Numbered from the stretch's first letter, positions 1 to 8,946 are shown. The stretch is DNA of 64,000 nucleotides from Candidatus Bilamarchaeaceae archaeon (GCA_038870635.1 JAVZJR010000001.1:74797-138796), one strand, 5' to 3'. Numbers and translations are program-made. The notes: generated by a model not told the origin, from the sequence alone.

Positions 1-1
1 A

Positions 2-1012
2 CCTGCTTTAGAAGGGATGGATGTCACAAAACAGGAAGAAATTGATCTCAAGATGAGGGAGTTGGACGGTACAAAAGATAAAAGTAGATTGGGGGCTAAT
101 GCAATAGTTGCGACTTCAATGGCTGTTTTGAGAGCGGCAGCAGCAGTAAATAATCAACCTCTATACAAGTACATTGGTGGAAGTAAATTACCTATAGCAA
201 TGTTTAATGTTATCAATGGAGGAAAACACGCTGGTGGAAAACTAGCAATTCAGGAATTTTTAATAATACCAAAAGGAAAAACTTTTTCAGAAAGATTACA
301 AGCTGCAAGTGAAATATATCATACTTTAGGAAAATATTTAGAAAAGAAATATGGGCCATCGGCACGAAATGTTGGTGATGAAGGAGGATACGCACCTCAA
401 ATGAACAAAACTGACGATGCCCTTGATGCCCTTTCTTATGCTGTTGAAGAAGCAGGATATGAAAAAGAATGTAGCCTGGCGATAGATGCAGCCGCCTCTT
501 CTTTTTATGATAGCGAAAAAGACAAATATATTTTAGATGAGGTAGCGATGGATAGTAAAGAATTATTGGAATTTTATAAAGAACTTGTAAGAGTATACAA
601 AGTAGAATCAATAGAAGACCCATTCCACGAAGAAGCATACGAAGATTTTGCAGCTTTAACCAAAGCAGTAGGAAAAAATGTTCAGATAGTAGGTGATGAT
701 TTATTAGTTACAAATATAGAAAGAATAAAAGAAGCTATCGCTCAAAAAGCAGTAACTGCTCTACTTCTAAAAATAAACCAAATAGGAACTGTGAGTGAAG
801 CATTAGAAGCAGCAAATCTTTGCAAAGAGAATGGGTTAAATATTATTGTAAGCCACCGCTCAGGTGAAACTGAAGATAATTTTATTGCAGATTTTGCTGT
901 TGGGATAAATGCAGGCCAGATAAAAACAGGTGCGCCTGCGAGAGGGGAAAGAACAGCAAAGTATAATCAACTACTGAGAATAGAAGAAAGCATAAGAGTG
1001 GAAGCTGAATAA
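2..1012 (+). CDS. eno: Enolase (5' end outside window)
   Basis: LGANAI, NVINGGKHA, VGDEGG, IEDPF, VGDDLLVTN, SHRSGETED and IKTGAPARGER enolase motifs; the frame is open to the window edge. Confidence 0.97.
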   Translation, partial: PALEGMDVTKQEEIDLKMRELDGTKDKSRLGANAIVATSMAVLRAAAAVNNQPLYKYIGGSKLPIAMFNVINGGKHAGGKLAIQEFLIIPKGKTFSERLQAASEIYHTLGKYLEKKYGPSARNVGDEGGYAPQMNKTDDALDALSYAVEEAGYEKECSLAIDAAASSFYDSEKDKYILDEVAMDSKELLEFYKELVRVYKVESIEDPFHEEAYEDFAALTKAVGKNVQIVGDDLLVTNIERIKEAIAQKAVTALLLKINQIGTVSEALEAANLCKENGLNIIVSHRSGETEDNFIADFAVGINAGQIKTGAPARGERTAKYNQLLRIEESIRVEAE

Positions 1013-1014
1013 AA

Positions 1015-1650
1015 ATGAGCAACATAGAAATGATAAATTATTTGAAAAGCATAGGTGCGATAAAGAGCAAGAAAGTTGAGGAAGCATTTCGAGCAGTTGA
1101 TCGTGCGTTATTTACTCAAAGAAATTACAATGGCTCGGCGTATATGGATTACCCTATTCCAATAACAGATGGACAAACAATATCTGCTCCCAGCATTGTT
1201 GCCATAATGCTTGAATTACTCGAACTAGACGAAGGGCACAAAGTTCTTGAAATTGGAAGTGGTTCAGGATATAACACTGTTCTTCTTTCTTATCTTGTAG
1301 GTGAAAAAGGTTTAGTTGTATCAATAGAATATCTTAATTCTTTATATGAAATAGCAAAGGAAAATATAAGCAAATTTTCTTTTTGTAAAAATGTAAAACT
1401 AATAAATGGTGATGGAAGCGAAGGCTATCCCCCTAATGCACCATACGATAGAATAATCGTTACAGCGGCCATGCCTTATCTAAAAAATCATCCTTTAGTA
1501 AAACAATTAAAGAAAAATGGCATATTGGTTGCACCAGTAGGCAATAGATATTGGCAAGATTTAGTAGTATACAAGAATAACGAAGAAATTCATGTACTAC
1601 CAGTTGCATTTGTGCCCTTAAGAGGGAAATATGGATGGCAAGATTTTTAA
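1015..1650 (+). CDS. pcm: Protein-L-isoaspartate O-methyltransferase
   Basis: GQTISAP, VLEIGSGSGY, GDGSEG, APYDRIIVTAA and FVPL motifs. Confidence 0.95.
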   Translation: MSNIEMINYLKSIGAIKSKKVEEAFRAVDRALFTQRNYNGSAYMDYPIPITDGQTISAPSIVAIMLELLELDEGHKVLEIGSGSGYNTVLLSYLVGEKGLVVSIEYLNSLYEIAKENISKFSFCKNVKLINGDGSEGYPPNAPYDRIIVTAAMPYLKNHPLVKQLKKNGILVAPVGNRYWQDLVVYKNNEEIHVLPVAFVPLRGKYGWQDF

Positions 1651-1671
1651 GTTGAGCAAATAAGTGATGAT

Positions 1672-2019
1672 ATGAAAATGATTTTAATGATAGTTATTCC
1701 GTTCATCCTGTTAGGAGGATGTTGTGGAATAACAGATGTAAACCCAAATTGTCCGTACAGTACGTATGGTAGCGCATGTAGTGACATTTGTGCAAAAATT
1801 GGCGGACAAAAACCAAACTGCTTTTCAGAATGTATCTCACTCGTAAAAGCAGAAGGCTTAGGAGATGCTACAACATGCTGCAAAAAAACATTTAGCGACT
1901 GGTGTAGCGAAACGTGCAAAGAAACAACATATTTTCCTTTTGATGAATGTATGAAAGAATGCAATGAGCAATATGCTGCATTAGGGATATCGCCAACCTC
2001 TTGTTACGTTCCAATATGA
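1672..2019 (+). CDS. Cys-rich secreted protein or lipoprotein, unknown function
   Basis: Hydrophobic signal ending LLGG-CC; 14 Cys in 115 aa. Confidence 0.7.
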   Translation: MKMILMIVIPFILLGGCCGITDVNPNCPYSTYGSACSDICAKIGGQKPNCFSECISLVKAEGLGDATTCCKKTFSDWCSETCKETTYFPFDECMKECNEQYAALGISPTSCYVPI

Positions 2020-2043
2020 TAAGAAAGTGTAGAAAAAATGCAT

Positions 2044-2310
2044 GTTTTGCCCAGAAAACAGAAGCAATGTAAGAATATGTTCTAGTTGTAGGATATTTAG
2101 CCGCTGATGAAGCGAGCATAAGAAGACTGCCTTCCGCTTCATCTATCATAAAACCGCACGTTTTGCCCAGAAAACAGAAGCAATGTAAGAATATGTTCTA
2201 GTTGTAGGATATTTAGCCGCTGATGAAGCGAGCATAAGAAGACTGCCTTCCGCTTCATCTATCATAAAACCGCACGTTTTGCCCAGAAAACAGAAGCAAT
2301 GTAAGAATAT
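2044..2310. repeat. 116-bp perfect tandem repeat, about 2.3 copies
   Basis: Units start at 2044, 2160 and 2276 (GTTTTGCCCAGAAAAC...); each full unit has the inverted repeat GATGAAGCG...CGCTTCATC. Confidence 0.95.
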
Positions 2311-2325
2311 AGTAAGAAACAGAAA

Positions 2326-2416
2326 CGCCCCGGGGAGGACTTGAACCTCCGGCCTGCTGATGTCTATGATTAAAAACCATAACAGTCAGCCGCTCTACCA
2401 ACTGAGCTACCGAGGC
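2326..2416 (-). tRNA. tRNA-Asn(GTT) with an 18-nt intron at 37/38
   Basis: GCCTCGG-TA-GCTC-AGTTGGTA-GAGC-G-GCTGA-CTGTTA[TGGTTTTTAATCATAGAC]A-TCAGC...GGAGGTTCAAGTCCTCC-CCGGGGC-G; BHB central helix CTGT/ATAG. Confidence 0.95.
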
Positions 2417-2552
2417 AACGAGGTAGCGAAGTGATGAGACAGCAAATGCATGTCTCACGAACTGAGCTACCGAGGCAACGAGGTAGCGAAGTGCATTGAA
2501 CGAATCGTCGTTCAATCCAAACTGAGCTACCGAGGCAACGAGGTAGCGAAGT
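2400..2552 (-). repeat. CRISPR-like mini-array: three identical 33-bp repeats (each includes tRNA-Asn nt 1-17) and two unique 27-nt hairpin spacers
   Basis: AACTGAGCTACCGAGGCAACGAGGTAGCGAAGT at 2400, 2460 and 2520; spacers 2433-2459 and 2493-2519. Confidence 0.93.
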
Positions 2553-2576
2553 ATTTCTCATTTTTTATTCTAAATC

Positions 2577-2584
2577 ATTAAAAA
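2577..2584 (-). promoter_or_regulatory. Putative TATA box for the array plus tRNA-Asn transcript
   Basis: TTTTTAAT on the minus strand about 25 nt upstream of the outermost repeat. Confidence 0.45.
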
Positions 2585-2586
2585 CC

Positions 2587-4527
2587 TTATGTACACTTCC
2601 AAAGTGAAATTACTATGACTAACCAAAGCATAATGAAAAACAACATAACGAAGATTGCATAGAGCAATGGTTTTTTGTTGAGGTCAATCCAATTCCGTAT
2701 TCTTTCTTCTATTTTATCACCTTCTAGTGGCTTTTTGTAGGTAGTTTCTTCTTTTCGCTTCCATCTGAAAACAATAACAGAAAGCACAAAACCAATGAGC
2801 AATATTAACATAGTCCAAGTAAGATCAGGATATTTACATACTTCTGGAATAGGTGGGATTTCTTTTTTCATAATCTCTATTTTTATCATTCCTTGGCCTA
2901 CTACTCTACCGTGTTCGTAAAATGTAATTGGGATATTATAAATGCCTGGCTCCATATCTTTTGGTGCTTTTATAATAAATCGCAACCACCCTTCCTGCCC
3001 AGCAGAAAATGCACGACTTATTTCTTTATCAATAAAAAGGAATTGATATTTACCTATCTCAAAAGTAAGATTTTTGATCTCTGTTTCATTCTTATGATTT
3101 ACTATTTTAAGTGTGTAGTTCAACTCCTCCCCTTGATAAACTGAAATAGTAACATTATCCAACAGTTCAAGCTCAGGTTTGTTTATTATAAGATAGACGT
3201 TAGCAAGAGTGGAAGCGAGTAATGTTGTTGTAGCATTGCCGACACATTGAAGTACTCCTTCCTTCATCCTATTATAATCCAAAATATCAGTTGGAGGCAT
3301 TGAAACTACTACGGAACCTTTAACACTATCATTAGCTCCAAAGTTTGATCTTTCCAAAGAAACATAAGTATAATTTTCAAAATCACCGCGAACGTAGCAA
3401 TATGCATCTTTCAATGGAATTGTTGAATGTAAAACAAAATCTGCTTTACCATCCTTATCATAATTAATTTTTATGTAAATATCCTTCGGTATTATGGTGA
3501 GCTCCATAAAAGGAGGTTTTGGGGGAACAATAGGTTGATAATAAGGTATCCCTAAACCGCCACCTCCACCTGGTTTAGAGGGAGTAGTTGTTGTTACTCT
3601 AAATGAAACAGTATCATATGCCACATTACCAGTAGTATCATTTGCGTAAAGTGAAATGGTGTGAAGACCATCACGCAAACCCGTAAGTATGTATGCCGGT
3701 CCGCAGTTCGGCATATCGGTTTTAACTCCATCTAAAACATACCAACACTTTGTAATACCATCGTCATCAACCATAATGTAAGTAAATGGAATGCTTGATG
3801 TTGAGTACTCTTTACCGTTTTCAGGAGTGATTATTTTAACATAGGGGGGCACATCAGGCCCTATCCCATTTATAAAAATTGAGTAGTTTGCAGTTGGAGA
3901 ATCAGCAAAAAGAGTGACATTCTCGTATAGCGATGAAATTGCAGTATCCATGGTTGTAAAATCACTTCGCACAAGTCCGATCACAAGATAATTCACATCA
4001 ATAGTAATTTCAGTTCCAAGATCATCTGTTGCGTTTAAAACAGTAACATTAATTTCATTTAAAGATTGTGTTCTGTTCACAGAATAATTCCCTGCAAACC
4101 AACCGGTAAGACGAGAAAGTTTCCATCTCGAAGCAGAGGACATATCGACACTATTACTTATAAAAACATAGGGAATAGAGGGGTACCACGCACGAAAAGT
4201 AGAAATATCCAACGGAATATAGGCGCAACCAGACGGTTCAACACGTGTTATCTGAATGGGAAAATTAGTAAGCTGGATATAATCTCCGTCGTATCCATCT
4301 GCATAACAAAGAGAAATATATTTTCCCAATAGTTCAGATGGACTAGAAGCACATATACGAATATTGGCGTCAGGATTCTCTATGCTGTTATCAGCATAAG
4401 AAGTTGAATTATCATCATAGACAAGCGCCTGTAGTACAGTGCCATCATTGGCGCGCACAATAGCAATATCGTAGTATTGAGCAAAAGCAAATGAAAATAA
4501 AAATAAAAACAGGATGATTTTTCTCAT
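2587..4527 (-). CDS. Secreted, membrane-anchored surface glycoprotein with Ig-like domains
   Basis: Signal peptide (FSFAFA); Ig-like block PPYVKIITP...GLHTISLYANDTTGN; Gly/Pro/Thr linker; many NxS/T sequons; two C-terminal TM helices. Confidence 0.75.
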   Translation of the reverse strand: MRKIILFLFLFSFAFAQYYDIAIVRANDGTVLQALVYDDNSTSYADNSIENPDANIRICASSPSELLGKYISLCYADGYDGDYIQLTNFPIQITRVEPSGCAYIPLDISTFRAWYPSIPYVFISNSVDMSSASRWKLSRLTGWFAGNYSVNRTQSLNEINVTVLNATDDLGTEITIDVNYLVIGLVRSDFTTMDTAISSLYENVTLFADSPTANYSIFINGIGPDVPPYVKIITPENGKEYSTSSIPFTYIMVDDDGITKCWYVLDGVKTDMPNCGPAYILTGLRDGLHTISLYANDTTGNVAYDTVSFRVTTTTPSKPGGGGGLGIPYYQPIVPPKPPFMELTIIPKDIYIKINYDKDGKADFVLHSTIPLKDAYCYVRGDFENYTYVSLERSNFGANDSVKGSVVVSMPPTDILDYNRMKEGVLQCVGNATTTLLASTLANVYLIINKPELELLDNVTISVYQGEELNYTLKIVNHKNETEIKNLTFEIGKYQFLFIDKEISRAFSAGQEGWLRFIIKAPKDMEPGIYNIPITFYEHGRVVGQGMIKIEIMKKEIPPIPEVCKYPDLTWTMLILLIGFVLSVIVFRWKRKEETTYKKPLEGDKIEERIRNWIDLNKKPLLYAIFVMLFFIMLWLVIVISLWKCT

Positions 4528-4542
4528 AGGCGCACCTGCACA

Positions 4543-6231
4543 CTATGGCACTAAAAGTTTTTTGAGTATGGTAAACACCTCATACAACCAATCATAAATA
4601 CCTTCTACATAGTCTTTGTTGACTATCTGTTTATTATTTACCCATCCTGGATCAGCACAACTTCTATCTGTAACGTTAAGTGTCTTTGTTATATCAAAAC
4701 CTGTTCCATAAGCACGTACTTCAATAGAATAATTACCGATGTTTTTTTCCAGTATTGGTCCTTTAACAGGATCATTATAAAATTTGTTGCAAGTAGGTAT
4801 CACTGCAAGAATCACTTGACCACTACTATTACTATGCACTACACCTATAGAATAGCTTTTAACACTATGATTGTAAGAACCATCATTATAAACTTGGGCA
4901 GGCGTGAAAGGATTAAGACCATTTATTTCCTTAAGTTCAAATGTAGCATCATTTATAATATTCCCATCAGAATCATTCACATACATAGTAACATTATAAG
5001 CTCTTCCAGCATACTCAAAAGTATCGTTCTCTATCCCATCAATAAAAACGTGAATTTGATAGGTTTTTATTACTGTTAGTGTATTTGTAGCGGTTCTGTT
5101 CTCATTGCATTCTACTATTTGGTCAAGAGGATCAACTATTGCTGTAAAAGTATAAGTGCCGCTTCTGCTGGTATTGGAAAAGTTTATACTTCTTTGAATA
5201 GAAGCACCTGGCCCAAAATCCTCTGTTATCGTCCAGTTTGTCTGATTAATAAAACCAGTTGGACCACTTATATTTAATGTGAGTCTAAAATTAGTTGTTA
5301 TATTAACATTTCCAGTATTAGTTAAAGTAATCGTTACATTAGTGCTATTATTTGGATAGATTGAACTCGGATTAACACTCACAGTTGGTGTTATGTCAGC
5401 TCCAATGCAAATCGGACCGTAACCAAGGCCATTAACAACTACATAACGCCTATAGACGACCTGATCACTTGTGGGCATATTCAGAGAAAGTTGAACAGGC
5501 AATTGAGCAGAGCTATTCACTAAAACAGCGTCTGAACAACTCGCTCCGTAATCATCACTGCACAAAGCTATTAGAATGCTCCTGCCCACACTGCTGTTTA
5601 AACCAGATTTAGAATCAGAAGGCGAAATGGAAACACTTTCACCTGTAGAACGAATCATATTTATACTAGTAACCGTTGCGGTTACATTTCCAGTTAATTG
5701 ATTAAACGAACTTGTGTTGAGTGGCACTGTATAACTGCCGCCCAACCAGCCGTCAGAATAATTTAGAAAAACAAAAGATGGCGAGCTTCCATCGCCGTTA
5801 TCAGAATATAAAACATGAATTCTACCTGGAAAAGCAGAAACAAAGACAGGTGGAGTTTTTGCAAAATCTTTGAATTGTGGAAATGCAAAGGCATCAAGAG
5901 GTGTATAATAACAACCACCGCCATCATTTAACGAAGTGTAGACAAGGCTAAGAGCAGCGCCATTAGTAAGATTCCAACTTACAAGATAATAACGATAGGT
6001 GCCGCCAACGTTTGCTGCGTAGGTTACGCCGATGTATTTTTGTCCAACTCCGCACAATTTTATGCTAAAATCAGGATTTCCAACATTATCTATATACATG
6101 TAAGTACCGTCGTTATAAACATCTGCGAGGGATACATTTTGGACGGCTAGAGAGCTGTTTATTATTTGAGCAGTTTGGCTAAACGCAAAAGAAACAAATA
6201 ATAAAAACAAAAATAACCTCTTCATAATCAC
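4543..6231 (-). CDS. Secreted surface protein with a CARDB-like domain
   Basis: Signal peptide; TITLTNTGN...GTYTFTAIVDPLDQIVECNENR CARDB-like motif; many sequons. Confidence 0.75.
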   Translation of the reverse strand: MIMKRLFLFLLFVSFAFSQTAQIINSSLAVQNVSLADVYNDGTYMYIDNVGNPDFSIKLCGVGQKYIGVTYAANVGGTYRYYLVSWNLTNGAALSLVYTSLNDGGGCYYTPLDAFAFPQFKDFAKTPPVFVSAFPGRIHVLYSDNGDGSSPSFVFLNYSDGWLGGSYTVPLNTSSFNQLTGNVTATVTSINMIRSTGESVSISPSDSKSGLNSSVGRSILIALCSDDYGASCSDAVLVNSSAQLPVQLSLNMPTSDQVVYRRYVVVNGLGYGPICIGADITPTVSVNPSSIYPNNSTNVTITLTNTGNVNITTNFRLTLNISGPTGFINQTNWTITEDFGPGASIQRSINFSNTSRSGTYTFTAIVDPLDQIVECNENRTATNTLTVIKTYQIHVFIDGIENDTFEYAGRAYNVTMYVNDSDGNIINDATFELKEINGLNPFTPAQVYNDGSYNHSVKSYSIGVVHSNSSGQVILAVIPTCNKFYNDPVKGPILEKNIGNYSIEVRAYGTGFDITKTLNVTDRSCADPGWVNNKQIVNKDYVEGIYDWLYEVFTILKKLLVP

Positions 6232-7847
6232 ACCATCGATAATGACTTACCAACATTTACTAAAACCGCATTAATATTTTGTAAAGATGACGCAAGAGCA
6301 ACATACAGACTATCACTCATATCCTTCTCATCACTGCCAGGTTCTTTTAGTAAAGGATCAACATCAAGTTCATAACTACCTATAGTTCCTCCACTATAAG
6401 ATATTAAAACTTTTATGTTTGCATTGTTGTTGTATTTAGTAGGAATTATAACAATAGATTCGTTACTATAAAACACTTTTTTACTAACATATAAATCCTT
6501 TTCTGGTTGGAGAGGTGAAAATATTATTAAACCATCATTTTCGCTGAAATCAAGAGTTGCGTTCACTACCTCGCCTGTGTTGCTATCGTTAACTGTTATA
6601 TTAAGAACATTTATCGCAGCGGATTTAAGACGAATAGATGAATTATGTGCGATACTCCCATTGGTATAAACAGTTATATTTTTCTCCCGCACTTTCTTTT
6701 GAGTTACCCATTTACTAGCGATTAATGCAAGCGCATTCATATTTTGAGTTGCTGCTTTTACTTGACTGGCATAATTGCTATTCACTAGAGAAGAACGATA
6801 AGTCGGAGTAAGTGAAGCATAACTAGCTATTGAAAGATTTTGCCTACAATAAAAACCATTAGAAACCTCTAAATAAATGCTATAGTTATACTCATCGGGT
6901 ATGTTATAGCGAGAGGGCGTTAACACGAAGGTCGCCATACCACTCTCGTTTGTTTTTGCTACTCCATAACCTAAAAATTTTCTTGCAGCATCAATTATGG
7001 GATAAAAGATACTTCGTCCGTTCTCTTCAACTGCACGAATACTTGCATTTTCAACTATGTTTTGATTTTCATCTCGCACTTGGGCAACAACTTTATAAGG
7101 TACTCCAGTTTTTGGAAAAGTTGTTGTTTGGACATCATCTATCCACACAGTTATATTACACTCTTTTTGACCATAAATGTAAAAGTAGTAGTTCTCCAAA
7201 TACGGAACCATAAACTCAAAATCAAAATAGGTGCCATTGTAACCTTCTAAACTTTCTATTGTACTTATGAAAAGCGGTTCTACGACACTACCGTTGTCAA
7301 ACTTTAAAACACCCATTTTTGTATTGTTTTTGAGAACAATGTAAGGACAAACAAATGGTAATTGATAGATATAGCAGGTAGTAGTGAGGAATGGTGAAAA
7401 AGTCATTAATGGACTTTCTATATATTTACTATAATTAGCCATACCTGAGAATGCAACAAAGGTGCTAAACATTCCGCTCTCGTTAAAATCAGATTGCACA
7501 GGAGAGTAAATATAAGCTGGATCAGGTTTAACAGATAAACGCGTAAGCAACAAAGTGGTATTATAAAAAGAAGCATAAGAACCATTTGGCTCATTATAAT
7601 AAATAATATTATTAGTTACGTTTTGCTCAGAAACTGGAAGGTTCAAATCAGCTATTGTACTTCCATTAAGCCTGCCCACCACACCAGCCCAATATGAAGA
7701 AAGTTGAGTAGCGTTTATTAAAACCATAGTTATGTTCCCGCCGGAAGATATGACCGCGGCTTGCGAGAAGACACAAGGTGAGAATAGAAGTAGCAAAATG
7801 AAAATTAAAAGTAGTGAGGATAGCAACTGAGACTGCCCTAAATGCAT
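6228..7847 (-). CDS. Secreted surface protein, first gene of the surface operon
   Basis: Signal peptide; GGNIT...YWAGVVG N-terminal motif; shares a domain with the downstream gene. Confidence 0.7.
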   Translation of the reverse strand: MHLGQSQLLSSLLLIFILLLLFSPCVFSQAAVISSGGNITMVLINATQLSSYWAGVVGRLNGSTIADLNLPVSEQNVTNNIIYYNEPNGSYASFYNTTLLLTRLSVKPDPAYIYSPVQSDFNESGMFSTFVAFSGMANYSKYIESPLMTFSPFLTTTCYIYQLPFVCPYIVLKNNTKMGVLKFDNGSVVEPLFISTIESLEGYNGTYFDFEFMVPYLENYYFYIYGQKECNITVWIDDVQTTTFPKTGVPYKVVAQVRDENQNIVENASIRAVEENGRSIFYPIIDAARKFLGYGVAKTNESGMATFVLTPSRYNIPDEYNYSIYLEVSNGFYCRQNLSIASYASLTPTYRSSLVNSNYASQVKAATQNMNALALIASKWVTQKKVREKNITVYTNGSIAHNSSIRLKSAAINVLNITVNDSNTGEVVNATLDFSENDGLIIFSPLQPEKDLYVSKKVFYSNESIVIIPTKYNNNANIKVLISYSGGTIGSYELDVDPLLKEPGSDEKDMSDSLYVALASSLQNINAVLVNVGKSLSMV

Positions 7848-7905
7848 GCCTAATAGAAAGAATTTAAATATATAAATTTATCGTTTTTCTTCATCGTTCT
7901 ACGTT

Positions 7906-8946
7906 TTAATCTTTAAGCTTTCTGCGATACTTTATATAGGTTGAGTAGTCGATGTATATTTTATTATTTATATAATCTTGAGTTTTAGTAGCAAGCTCCT
8001 TTACTTCTTCTATTTTATCAGTAACTGATATGACAAAAGAATCGCTTCCAGCACCGCTGCCAAAAGAAGTAGCTAGTATTTTGTCTCCTGGTTTAGCAAC
8101 ATCAAGAATGGCACTTAAACCAAGCGGCACTGCTCCAGAGTAAGTATTTCCTATATAAGGAGTGAGCAAACCTGTTCTCAGTTTTTCTTTTGGTATGCCA
8201 AGCTTCTCAGCAAGTTGTACAGGAAATTTAGCATTTGGTTGATGGAAAACAACATAATCGAAATCTTCTAATTTTAAACCTGTTTTTTCAAGAATTCCTT
8301 TTGTTGCTCCAGTGACGTGTTTAAAATAGGCTGGCGCACCGGTAAATCTTCCGCCATGGCTTGGGTAATCTGCCTTTTGTCTTCTCCAAAAATCAGGAGT
8401 ATCTGTTGTAAAAGAAAATGTGCTCTCAATTATAGCAACAGATTCGCTATTTTTACCAAATATAAAAGCTGCCCCTCCTGAACCTGCACTGTATTCAAGT
8501 GCATCGCCAGGTCTTCCCTGTGCGGTATCTGCACCTATAGACATCCCGTACTTTATTAGACCACTATCAACTAAACCAATGCACATCTGAAAGCCAGCAG
8601 TCCCTGCTTTACATGCAAACTCTAAATCAGCTGCTGTACTATTTGGAACCGCGCCTATTGCCTCGGCTACTATAGAAGCAGTTGGTTTAACAGCATAAGG
8701 GTGGCTTTCACTTCCAACGTAAATCGCACCTAAATCCGCTGGCTTTATTCTCGCACGCTTCATTGCATTTCTTGCGGCTTCAACTGCGATAGTTGCCGCG
8801 TCCTCATCGACTTTCCCAACTGCCTTTTCTTTTATTCCGAGACCATTTTCTATTCTCTCTGGTTCTTCTCCCCAAACTTTCGCGATTTCGCTTGTTTTTA
8901 TTCTGTAAATTGGAATGTATGCACCATAACCAACAATTCCTGCCAT
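7906..8946 (-). CDS. Hydroxymethylglutaryl-CoA synthase (archaeal type)
   Basis: [34 protein letters not shown] and SFGSGAGSD motifs. Confidence 0.95.

Follow-up and report, generated by a model that had tools for sequence, protein, structure and literature searches.

The stretch analysed here is a 64,000-nucleotide (nt) segment, hereafter the window, of a Candidatus Bilamarchaeaceae archaeon (GCA_038870635.1, JAVZJR010000001.1:74797-138796), and belongs to a genome of 859 kb that we designate G000. Near its beginning, on the minus strand, lies a tRNA-Asn(GTT) gene preceded by an array of three identical direct repeats and two short hairpins, each repeat consisting of a 16-nt leader and the first 17 nt of the tRNA. 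A first-pass annotation, made from the sequence alone, had likened this arrangement to a CRISPR array, with the hairpins as spacers. The data presented below lead us to regard the array as probably the footprint of a family of small palindromic DNA elements, termed H, rather than a CRISPR-like memory array. Throughout, G001 and the following numbers denote genomes of relatives, L numbers denote individual loci or contigs, and C denotes a contig. The features of the locus are:

2326-2416, minus strand: tRNA-Asn(GTT) gene with an intron at the canonical position, about 2361-2379 (Rfam RF00005, 62.4 bits, model positions 1-71; ARAGORN with introns)
2400-2432, minus strand: repeat 1, leader (2417-2432) plus tRNA nt 1-17 (2400-2416); the functional copy, which runs into the tRNA
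2433-2459, minus strand: hairpin unit 1, loop TGCATTTGC on a 7-bp stem, 27 nt in all
2460-2492, minus strand: repeat 2, leader plus tRNA nt 1-17 as a dead stub
2493-2519, minus strand: hairpin unit 2, loop CGAT on a 9-bp stem, 27 nt in all, with the dispersed GAACGACGWTTCGTTC hairpin as core
2520-2552, minus strand: repeat 3, outermost leader plus dead stub
2553-2586, minus strand: A/T-rich promoter-like region, read from the sequence, with AATAAAAAA at 2561-2569 and GGTTTTTAATGATTTA at 2571-2585
2040-2310, minus strand: 116-nt tandem repeat (2.3 copies) directly behind the tRNA 3' end, a repeat class separate from the 5' cassettes

Tandem Repeats Finder reported 2.6 copies of a 60-nt period at 2400-2552, and an exact search of the whole 859-kb genome recovered the 33-mer in three copies without mismatch, all on the minus strand, at 2400-2432, 2460-2492 and 2520-2552, and nowhere else (reversed control, 0). 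The leader alone also occurs three times, against 0.02 expected. Rfam found a 19-nt insert after position 37 of the tRNA and, in window positions 1-8000, no match other than tRNA (E up to 1). ARAGORN called tRNA-Asn(GTT) when introns were allowed, while without introns it truncated the gene to 2326-2407 and miscalled it tRNA-Lys(ttt). It follows from the placement by both programs that each repeat is made of leader plus tRNA nt 1-17, and that the last repeat is the true 5' end of the gene. Folded as DNA, the 27-nt hairpins gave -6.0 kcal/mol (z -3.8) for unit 1 and -8.9 kcal/mol (z -6.4) for unit 2. Of the 16 leader positions, 10 can pair with tRNA nt 1-16, and each unit of stub, hairpin and leader is predicted to fold into one long hairpin (z -3.95 and -4.82); the fold predicted for array and tRNA together reaches -87.2 kcal/mol (z -5.06). 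The A/T-rich boxes are situated 8-33 nt upstream of the outermost repeat, between the array and the stop codon (2587) of the upstream open reading frame (ORF), and this promoter-like region is partly kept in G001 and in the metagenome contig L134. No cas or integrase domain was detected among the seven ORFs within about 8 kb. In all these respects, namely the three identical 33-nt repeats with their 60-nt period, their composition and the position of the real tRNA 5' end, the partial complementarity that allows one long hairpin per unit, the TATA-like box before the outermost repeat, and the absence of cas and integrase genes, the first-pass annotation was borne out.

It had also proposed confirmation with spanning reads. 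The read evidence consisted of Logan contigs (k = 31) from four runs of two hot-spring metagenome studies, in all four of which the junction piece repeat 1-hairpin 1-repeat 2 (2403-2489 or 2400-2489) was present at single-copy depth (35.6 against 38.7 in the flanks, 87.5 against 71-81, 11.7 against 11-12, and 6.8 against 6-7.5, respectively). The piece with spacer 2 is absent among the listed contig pieces; the bin 2497-2537 has depth in three of the four runs, and 2497-2701 is left uncovered in run X2. Confirmation was thus obtained for the junction, but not for the order and number of units, which lie beyond proof from these contigs because at k = 31 they break at the 33-nt repeat. This silence, together with the gap in run X2, would be compatible with a collapsed or chimeric repeat in a metagenome-assembled genome (MAG). 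Such an artefact is nevertheless hardly credible, given the repeat-spacer 1-repeat piece in every run from both studies, an independent genome (G001, also seen as L155) that carries the same locus with one unit, and the recurrence of the architecture at many other loci.

Hairpin cassettes at other loci and in related genomes

Copies of both hairpins were found elsewhere in G000. A homologue of hairpin 1 stands before the tRNA-Met(CAT) gene, where tRNA nt 1-17 are followed by a 27-nt hairpin, ACTTCGCTATCTTTT and the gene itself; its 9-nt loop matches the one in hairpin 1 exactly, and four of the six differences among the 27 positions are accounted for by two compensatory stem pairs. At tRNA-Glu, nt 1-10 of the tRNA occur three times with two identical hairpin-plus-leader units, and the core of the outer hairpin equals that of hairpin 2. 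The tRNA-Leu gene is preceded by its nt 3-13, a hairpin, the inverted copy TCGCTAC, and a 36-nt spacer with its own TATA-like box. When the whole of G000 was scanned for direct repeats spanning a hairpin (41 rows), repeats of at least 10 nt at H-type hairpins were restricted to the Asn, Glu, Met and Leu loci and the intron of tRNA-Met. G000 itself has only two copies of the hairpin 2 core, plus variants. Taken together, the copies define an element of 22-28 nt, with flanks that are mostly TGG...GC, a stem of 7-9 bp and a loop of 3-9 nt, the 3-nt loop being that of the intron copy in the tRNA-Met gene. Equivalent leader-plus-tRNA-fragment arrays, which the first-pass annotation had suggested looking for, are thus present at three further tRNA genes; its spacers are indeed hairpins, but their description as unrelated sequence did not hold, since each has close homologues at other loci. 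A count of hairpins near tRNAs in G000 gave 12 of 138, where such regions make up 1.6% of the genome; as anticodon arms were counted and the two lower-GC copies of H were not, it was left aside.

Based on the core of hairpin 2 (16 nt, at most one mismatch), the family extends to 37 of 61 genomes of the archaeal family, with up to 32 copies per genome, often at contig ends, against 0-1 copies in the reversed control; viral contigs gave 0 exact matches. The search of the spacers against the genome, its relatives and viral contigs, likewise proposed beforehand, therefore revealed a dispersed family. In other genera the core lies inside larger double-hairpin repeats and inside D-loop and anticodon introns. 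Homologues of hairpin 2, besides the one before tRNA-Glu, were found in G001, G002, G005 and G006. The tRNA-Asn ortholog of G001 has two repeats and a single hairpin identical to hairpin 2 at 23 of 27 positions; G002 carries cassettes at two tRNAs and G005 at several, and G006 harbors an 8-unit array in which two hairpin subfamilies, with flanks TGGAGT...ACTGC or CAGATT...AATAC, alternate, share flanks and form chimeras. The same layout occurs at protein-gene starts in G002 (L108) and G019 (L088). Moreover, an H double hairpin is located inside an IS200-like insertion sequence (IS) of G019, between the GC-rich end hairpin of the IS itself and tnpA, and the homologous IS of G070 is devoid of it (boundaries read by eye, the gap set by MAFFT being misplaced). 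Overall, H lands at tRNA gene ends, in tRNA introns and occasionally at protein-gene starts in this Micrarchaeota lineage. Rfam at its gathering threshold found 5 tRNAs on 30 loci and missed several multi-intron tRNAs visible by eye, and was not used to assess the adjacency of hairpins and tRNAs.

All these cassettes have a common layout: a target segment X, the hairpin, the end of X as an inverted copy, a short native flank, and X again, joined to the intact gene. A score for the pairing of the flanks lacked a matched control and was set aside. The length of the duplicated target varies between 8 and 35 nt from locus to locus, which means that no ruler is at work. The inverted copy is TGACCCC against GGGGTCA in G006, matches at 10 of 11 positions in G002 (L104), 7 of 7 at tRNA-Leu (TCGCTAC) and 9 of 9 at the protein gene L108, and at 10 of 16 at tRNA-Asn. 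In the 5' cassettes read, the hairpin always has the same orientation relative to the gene. The 3' end of the G006 tRNA-Asn gene bears an array that is the mirror image of the 5' arrays: the final 11 nt of the tRNA recur twice, the hairpins stand in reverse complement, and the inverted copy lies toward the tRNA. Read by eye, breaks often follow a T that precedes the TGG of the hairpin, and no consistent microhomology could be discerned at the junctions.

In the leader shared by the Asn and Met loci, the first 10 nt (ACTTCGCTAC; window 2417-2432) are a perfect inverted copy of tRNA-Leu nt 7-16 (G000 C2:41283 onward). The motif ACTTCGTT(C/T) also precedes unrelated tRNAs of G002 and G006 as their leader, and equals the loop plus 3' arm of the short hairpin in the tRNA-Met intron. 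Judged from sequence, leaders of the Asn/Met type may be relics of older cassettes.

Close relatives differ in the number of units, as the first-pass annotation had anticipated in suggesting a search for variation in spacer number. At tRNA-Asn there are two units in G000, one in G001 and none in L134, which has leader and tRNA without any hairpin and whose upstream gene end is nearer to that of G000 than is that of G001. More distant congeners have no hairpin units at tRNA-Asn, and both the array and the ACTTCG leader are absent from this gene in G003, G004, G015, G020, G024 and G036. The simplest history that these sequences suggest would comprise an older shared unit, its loss in L134 through recombination between the 33-nt repeats, and the gain of the tRNA-proximal unit in G000. 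Among six genomes of the genus, the 5' cassette of tRNA-Met is found only in G000. For the cassette in the tRNA-Met intron, filled sites were found in G000, G004 and G005, and empty ones in G001 and G003; the cassette lies at the 3' splice junction, where the first 12 nt of the 3' exon are duplicated, and the filled alleles differ from the empty ones by an insert composed of hairpin, inverted copy, 4 nt and direct repeat. In G004 and G005 the hairpin concerned is hairpin 2 minus five apical bases.

With regard to the surroundings of the array, the neighboring genes encode enolase, a PCMT methyltransferase, a protein of unknown function and large secreted-type proteins; among named relatives, the one closest to the flanking PCMT gene, at 73% identity, is from a Candidatus Micrarchaeota MAG that shares the locus. 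The 116-nt repeat behind the tRNA is a member of a trailer family found behind many G000 tRNA genes, with tandem units of 87-103 nt that combine T-rich TTCTTACTGT-type motifs with a GC-rich hairpin, whose stem covaries between copies, and that are often followed by a second module of nested hairpins. Further copies are located at C1:180839, 206565 and 218112, C2:43000, C3:49100 and C4:11049 of G000. Other GC-rich hairpin modules (e.g. AAGGGGGCG..CCCCCTT) seem to interrupt tRNA T-loops and to form mosaic repeats at contig ends (L071, L074, L078 and L080 of G046, and L105-L107 of G001).

Origin of the array and competing explanations

The picture that we consider probable is that of insertions of H, each accompanied by duplication of its target. 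At tRNA-Asn, X is the 16-nt leader together with tRNA nt 1-17, and the two stacked H units belong to two subfamilies. The gene would go on working, because the duplication rebuilds a complete tRNA downstream of the hairpin. The inverted copy, here the leader, would pair across the hairpin with the dead stub in a hairpin of about 60 nt, and by locking the stub in this way it would keep it from competing for the 3' strand of the acceptor stem. The mature 5' end would then come from cleavage by RNase P at the last repeat, and G000 does have a gene for the RNA of this enzyme (87.4 bits, cut-off 84). Units would be added by new insertion, or by duplication of a unit with exchange of its hairpin, and removed by recombination or slippage between the direct repeats. 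We infer that the process operates at the DNA rather than the RNA level and that the element is selfish or neutral. For the generating step we propose, tentatively and with less assurance than for the element itself, palindrome-triggered fold-back synthesis with template switching, i.e. duplication-inversion-duplication: a nascent strand that gains the palindrome would fold back, copy X in reverse and switch back to the start of X. The repeated insertion of hairpin cassettes with duplication of the tRNA 5' end, as the first-pass annotation had put it, is supported by the 0, 1 and 2 units of close relatives.

Several observations weigh against this explanation. No Y1 transposase was found in G000 or in five of six congeners, and a GIY-YIG nuclease was found in none of five genus genomes, these genomes being 81-92% complete. 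Many genera share an identical 16-nt core, and the leader is identical in G000, G001 and L134 while the intergenic DNA nearby has diverged; functional constraint, instead of selfish spread, could account for both. Stems have held their pairing through compensatory changes, which might reflect selection on structure. The mirror-image 3' array is known from a single case. The outermost leader has neither stub nor hairpin in front of it, and the first event at the tRNA-Asn locus is for this reason not reconstructed. In addition, the inverted copies at Asn and Met are imperfect (10/16 and about 10/15) and share their mismatches, and therefore fit fresh fold-back copying poorly. These shared mismatches, and the identity of the first 10 nt of the leader with inverted tRNA-Leu nt 7-16, suggest that an older cassette may have moved between tRNA genes with similar 5' ends; later decay of the copies would be the other reading of the sequences.

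As a mobilising enzyme, Y1 transposase was tried and rejected on present showing, and is kept as a weak lead. Y1_Tnp occurs in 18 of the 61 genomes, including all four of those richest in hairpins (two of which are congeners) against 14 of the 57 others, but many Y1-positive genomes have only 0-1 hairpins, and the hairpin of G019 is an insertion within the IS.

How do other explanations of the array compare? A CRISPR-like or ectopic, Cas1-made mini-array that stores foreign sequences would explain the identical repeats and spacers of equal length, and a genuine CRISPR array does exist in this genome, at C5:284-950. That array, however, has about 11 repeats of 31 nt unrelated to the repeat before the tRNA, and longer spacers (33 and 37 nt in the two counted). 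The intervening sequences at tRNA-Asn are, moreover, members of a conserved dispersed family, with homologues of spacer 1 before tRNA-Met and of spacer 2 at tRNA-Glu and in other genomes and genera; the duplication is of no fixed length (8-35 nt); no cas domain is present in the seven ORFs nearby; and the hairpin 2 core has no exact match in viral contigs. The CRISPR analogy of the first-pass annotation is accordingly abandoned, and we hold an origin of this kind to be very improbable. More can be said for the units as functional modules of the pre-tRNA leader, co-transcribed and acting as RNA, be it as processing or stability elements, as RNase P decoys or as suppliers of small RNAs. All six leader copies (G000, G001 and L134) show 100% identity amid differing intergenic DNA, compensatory changes preserve the stems, the Asn and Met hairpins have kept the same 9-nt loop, the units fold strongly, and the only promoter-like A/T boxes are upstream of them. 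Template-switch correction without selection can, on the other hand, also bring about compensatory changes in DNA palindromes. A common RNA function is further argued against by the mirror-image 3' array, in which the hairpin is reverse-complemented and the RNA loop sequence consequently differs, by the occurrence of the same layout at protein-gene starts, in an IS element and inside introns, and by the patchy presence among congeners at the same tRNA, with 0, 1 or 2 units among close relatives. We thus judge it unlikely. By way of a separate observation on CRISPR loci, a degenerate relic of an Asn-type cassette in G006 (L013) adjoins a CRISPR array with a repeat related to that of G000.

A still less likely alternative, in our estimation, is that the array is a spliced leader or an intron-like structure in transition: transcription would start from the outermost stub, and the splicing endonuclease would remove hairpin, leader and next stub at the D-loop. 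The break at 17/18 is 2 nt from the D-loop position 15/16, where introns interrupt tRNA-Asn in G005 and G006, other tRNAs of the genus, and tRNA-Tyr of the window; the direct repeat would let any matching pair of cuts yield a correct tRNA; the same type of cassette is part of the tRNA-Met intron at its 3' junction; and the minimum-energy fold pairs the outermost stub with the 3' strand of the acceptor. G000 also has a 390-aa ORF with two tRNA_int_endo matches, and a second gene. Against it stands the predicted structure, in which neither the minimum-energy nor the centroid fold contains a bulge-helix-bulge motif: the order is 6 bp, a 2x2 loop, 3 bp, a 2-3 nt loop and the hairpin, that is, 2x2 internal loops about a 3-bp helix rather than two 3-nt bulges separated by 4 bp. 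Furthermore, the array does not interrupt the mature tRNA as an intron would, the innermost repeat being continuous with a complete tRNA; because this copy comes complete with its leader, RNase P suffices. The endonuclease genes (C1:66130-66621; two splicing-endonuclease matches in the 390-aa ORF, one in a separate 175-aa ORF) are reminiscent of the three-unit splicing endonuclease with broad specificity that ultrasmall archaea reportedly possess (PMC3239211).

Even with H as the preferred explanation, a link between cassettes and tRNA introns is suggested, although suggested only. The hint in the first-pass annotation at the D-loop intron found some support in the introns at 15/16 and in the tRNA-Met cassette, and none in the array fold, where a bulge-helix-bulge was missing. 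The tRNA-Met case demonstrates that an intron can take up a cassette at an exon boundary. One might go further and see in the cassettes a birth route for archaeal tRNA introns, a proposal we put forward as doubtful. Under it, a hairpin would enter a tRNA gene with an inverted exon copy and a direct repeat, building a helix-loop-helix round the new junctions, the inverted copy masking the decoy copy of the exon. Were the duplication to reach +1, the result would be a harmless leader array, as at tRNA-Asn; were it to fall short of +1, the broad-specificity endonuclease would have to remove the insert, and a new or longer intron would arise. The outcomes would include the tRNA-Met intron cassette (three filled, two empty sites) and the D-loop introns of G005 and G006.

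These tRNA-Asn D-loop introns measure 43-48 nt and are inserted at 15/16, with the sequence AGCCTTGAA...GTGCAG/A (L103, G006:C39:7300-7850; L006, G005:C2). The same family is present in tRNA-Thr and tRNA-Met of G002 (L104, L142), and from the occurrence of the AGCCTTGAA-type intron there it looks like one intron family common to different tRNAs. We dropped the D-loop introns of G005, G006 and G002 as candidate cassettes, as they have no clear inverted exon copy; they show only a boundary repeat of 3-4 nt, plus an H-like inner hairpin in G006. The intron of tRNA-Met(CAT) in G000 (C1:157311-157481) is about 97 nt long and has C- and D-box-like motifs (GATGA...CTGA) upstream of the cassette, so that it may, to judge by these motifs, hold an intron-encoded methylation guide.

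Comparison with known systems

CRISPR arrays share with the present one the alternation of identical direct repeats with intervening sequences of equal length; here, by contrast, the intervening sequences form a conserved family, a tRNA gene fragment makes up the repeat, and there is no cas neighborhood. Classical transposons and miniature inverted-repeat transposable elements differ from H in that its duplication is not fixed (8-35 nt) and comes with an extra inverted copy of the target. Unlike the duplicated attachment (att) sites that integrative elements leave at tRNA genes, only 27 nt separate the copies, and no integrase domain lies within 8 kb. The model for integration of a mobile element at the Caldiarchaeum tRNA-Thr gene has a 5' tRNA fragment upstream of an intact gene with a 1.8-kb recombinase-encoding element between them, and population heterogeneity there is linked to intron gain (PMC3293823). 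The fragment upstream of an intact gene is common to both cases, whereas only 22-28 nt lie between the copies here, with no recombinase nearby.

Duplication-inversion-duplication, or quasipalindrome template switching, is similar in form, with a segment in direct, inverted and again direct orientation, a palindrome at the turn, and inverted and duplicated lengths that vary. What sets the cassettes apart is that one conserved hairpin family occupies the turn at many independent loci and in many genomes, and for this reason they are not one-off replication errors. The transposing tRNA introns of Thermoproteales reportedly consist of related short sequences at different positions in different tRNA genes. 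H hairpins resemble them in occurring within the D-loop and anticodon introns of relatives, and the Asn array differs in lying outside the mature tRNA, needing no splicing and displaying no bulge-helix-bulge in the folds. A 2026 preprint states that the arrival of archaeal tRNA introns remains open (10.64898/2026.10.13.758758); a single type of element, encountered outside tRNAs, where an exon meets an intron, and within introns, bears on this question. On the practical side, such arrays mislead CRISPR and tRNA finders, as with the tRNA-Lys called by ARAGORN without introns, and break short-read assemblies.

Close counterparts are provided by the repetitive extragenic palindromic (REP) elements of bacteria, with the bacterial interspersed mosaic elements (BIME) and REP doublets forming hairpins (REPIN), which are likewise short (20-40 nt), imperfect palindromes, present in several to tens of copies, mostly noncoding, often clustered or doubled, and variable between strains. 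H is a dispersed short imperfect palindrome in the same sense (37 of 61 genomes, up to 32 copies, controls 0-1). In contrast, it is archaeal, prefers tRNA gene ends and introns, and carries a direct duplication and an inverted copy of its target. The relevant passages of two REP papers (PMC3733652, PMC2817692) make no mention of a direct duplication plus inverted target copy, and the matching passages of the paper on REP tags (PMC3733652) contain nothing on archaea or target duplication. The partnership with a REP-associated tyrosine transposase (RAYT) was not recovered either, as the G019 TnpA is an IS200 protein (103 bits) that scores 22.7 bits on the RAYT model (cut-off 80), and the hairpin there is an insertion inside the IS and not an IS end, whereas in REPIN-RAYT systems REPs flank a single-copy RAYT gene. 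Searches of the full-text literature brought to light no account of archaeal cassettes in which a hairpin accompanies duplicated tRNA ends. Since a single genus offers both empty and filled sites, the family is a tractable system for studying how palindromes spread without a recognisable transposase. Small palindromic mobile repeats have been well studied in bacteria; with its stub, hairpin and inverted copy at tRNA gene ends, H is apparently a new, previously undescribed archaeal variant of them.

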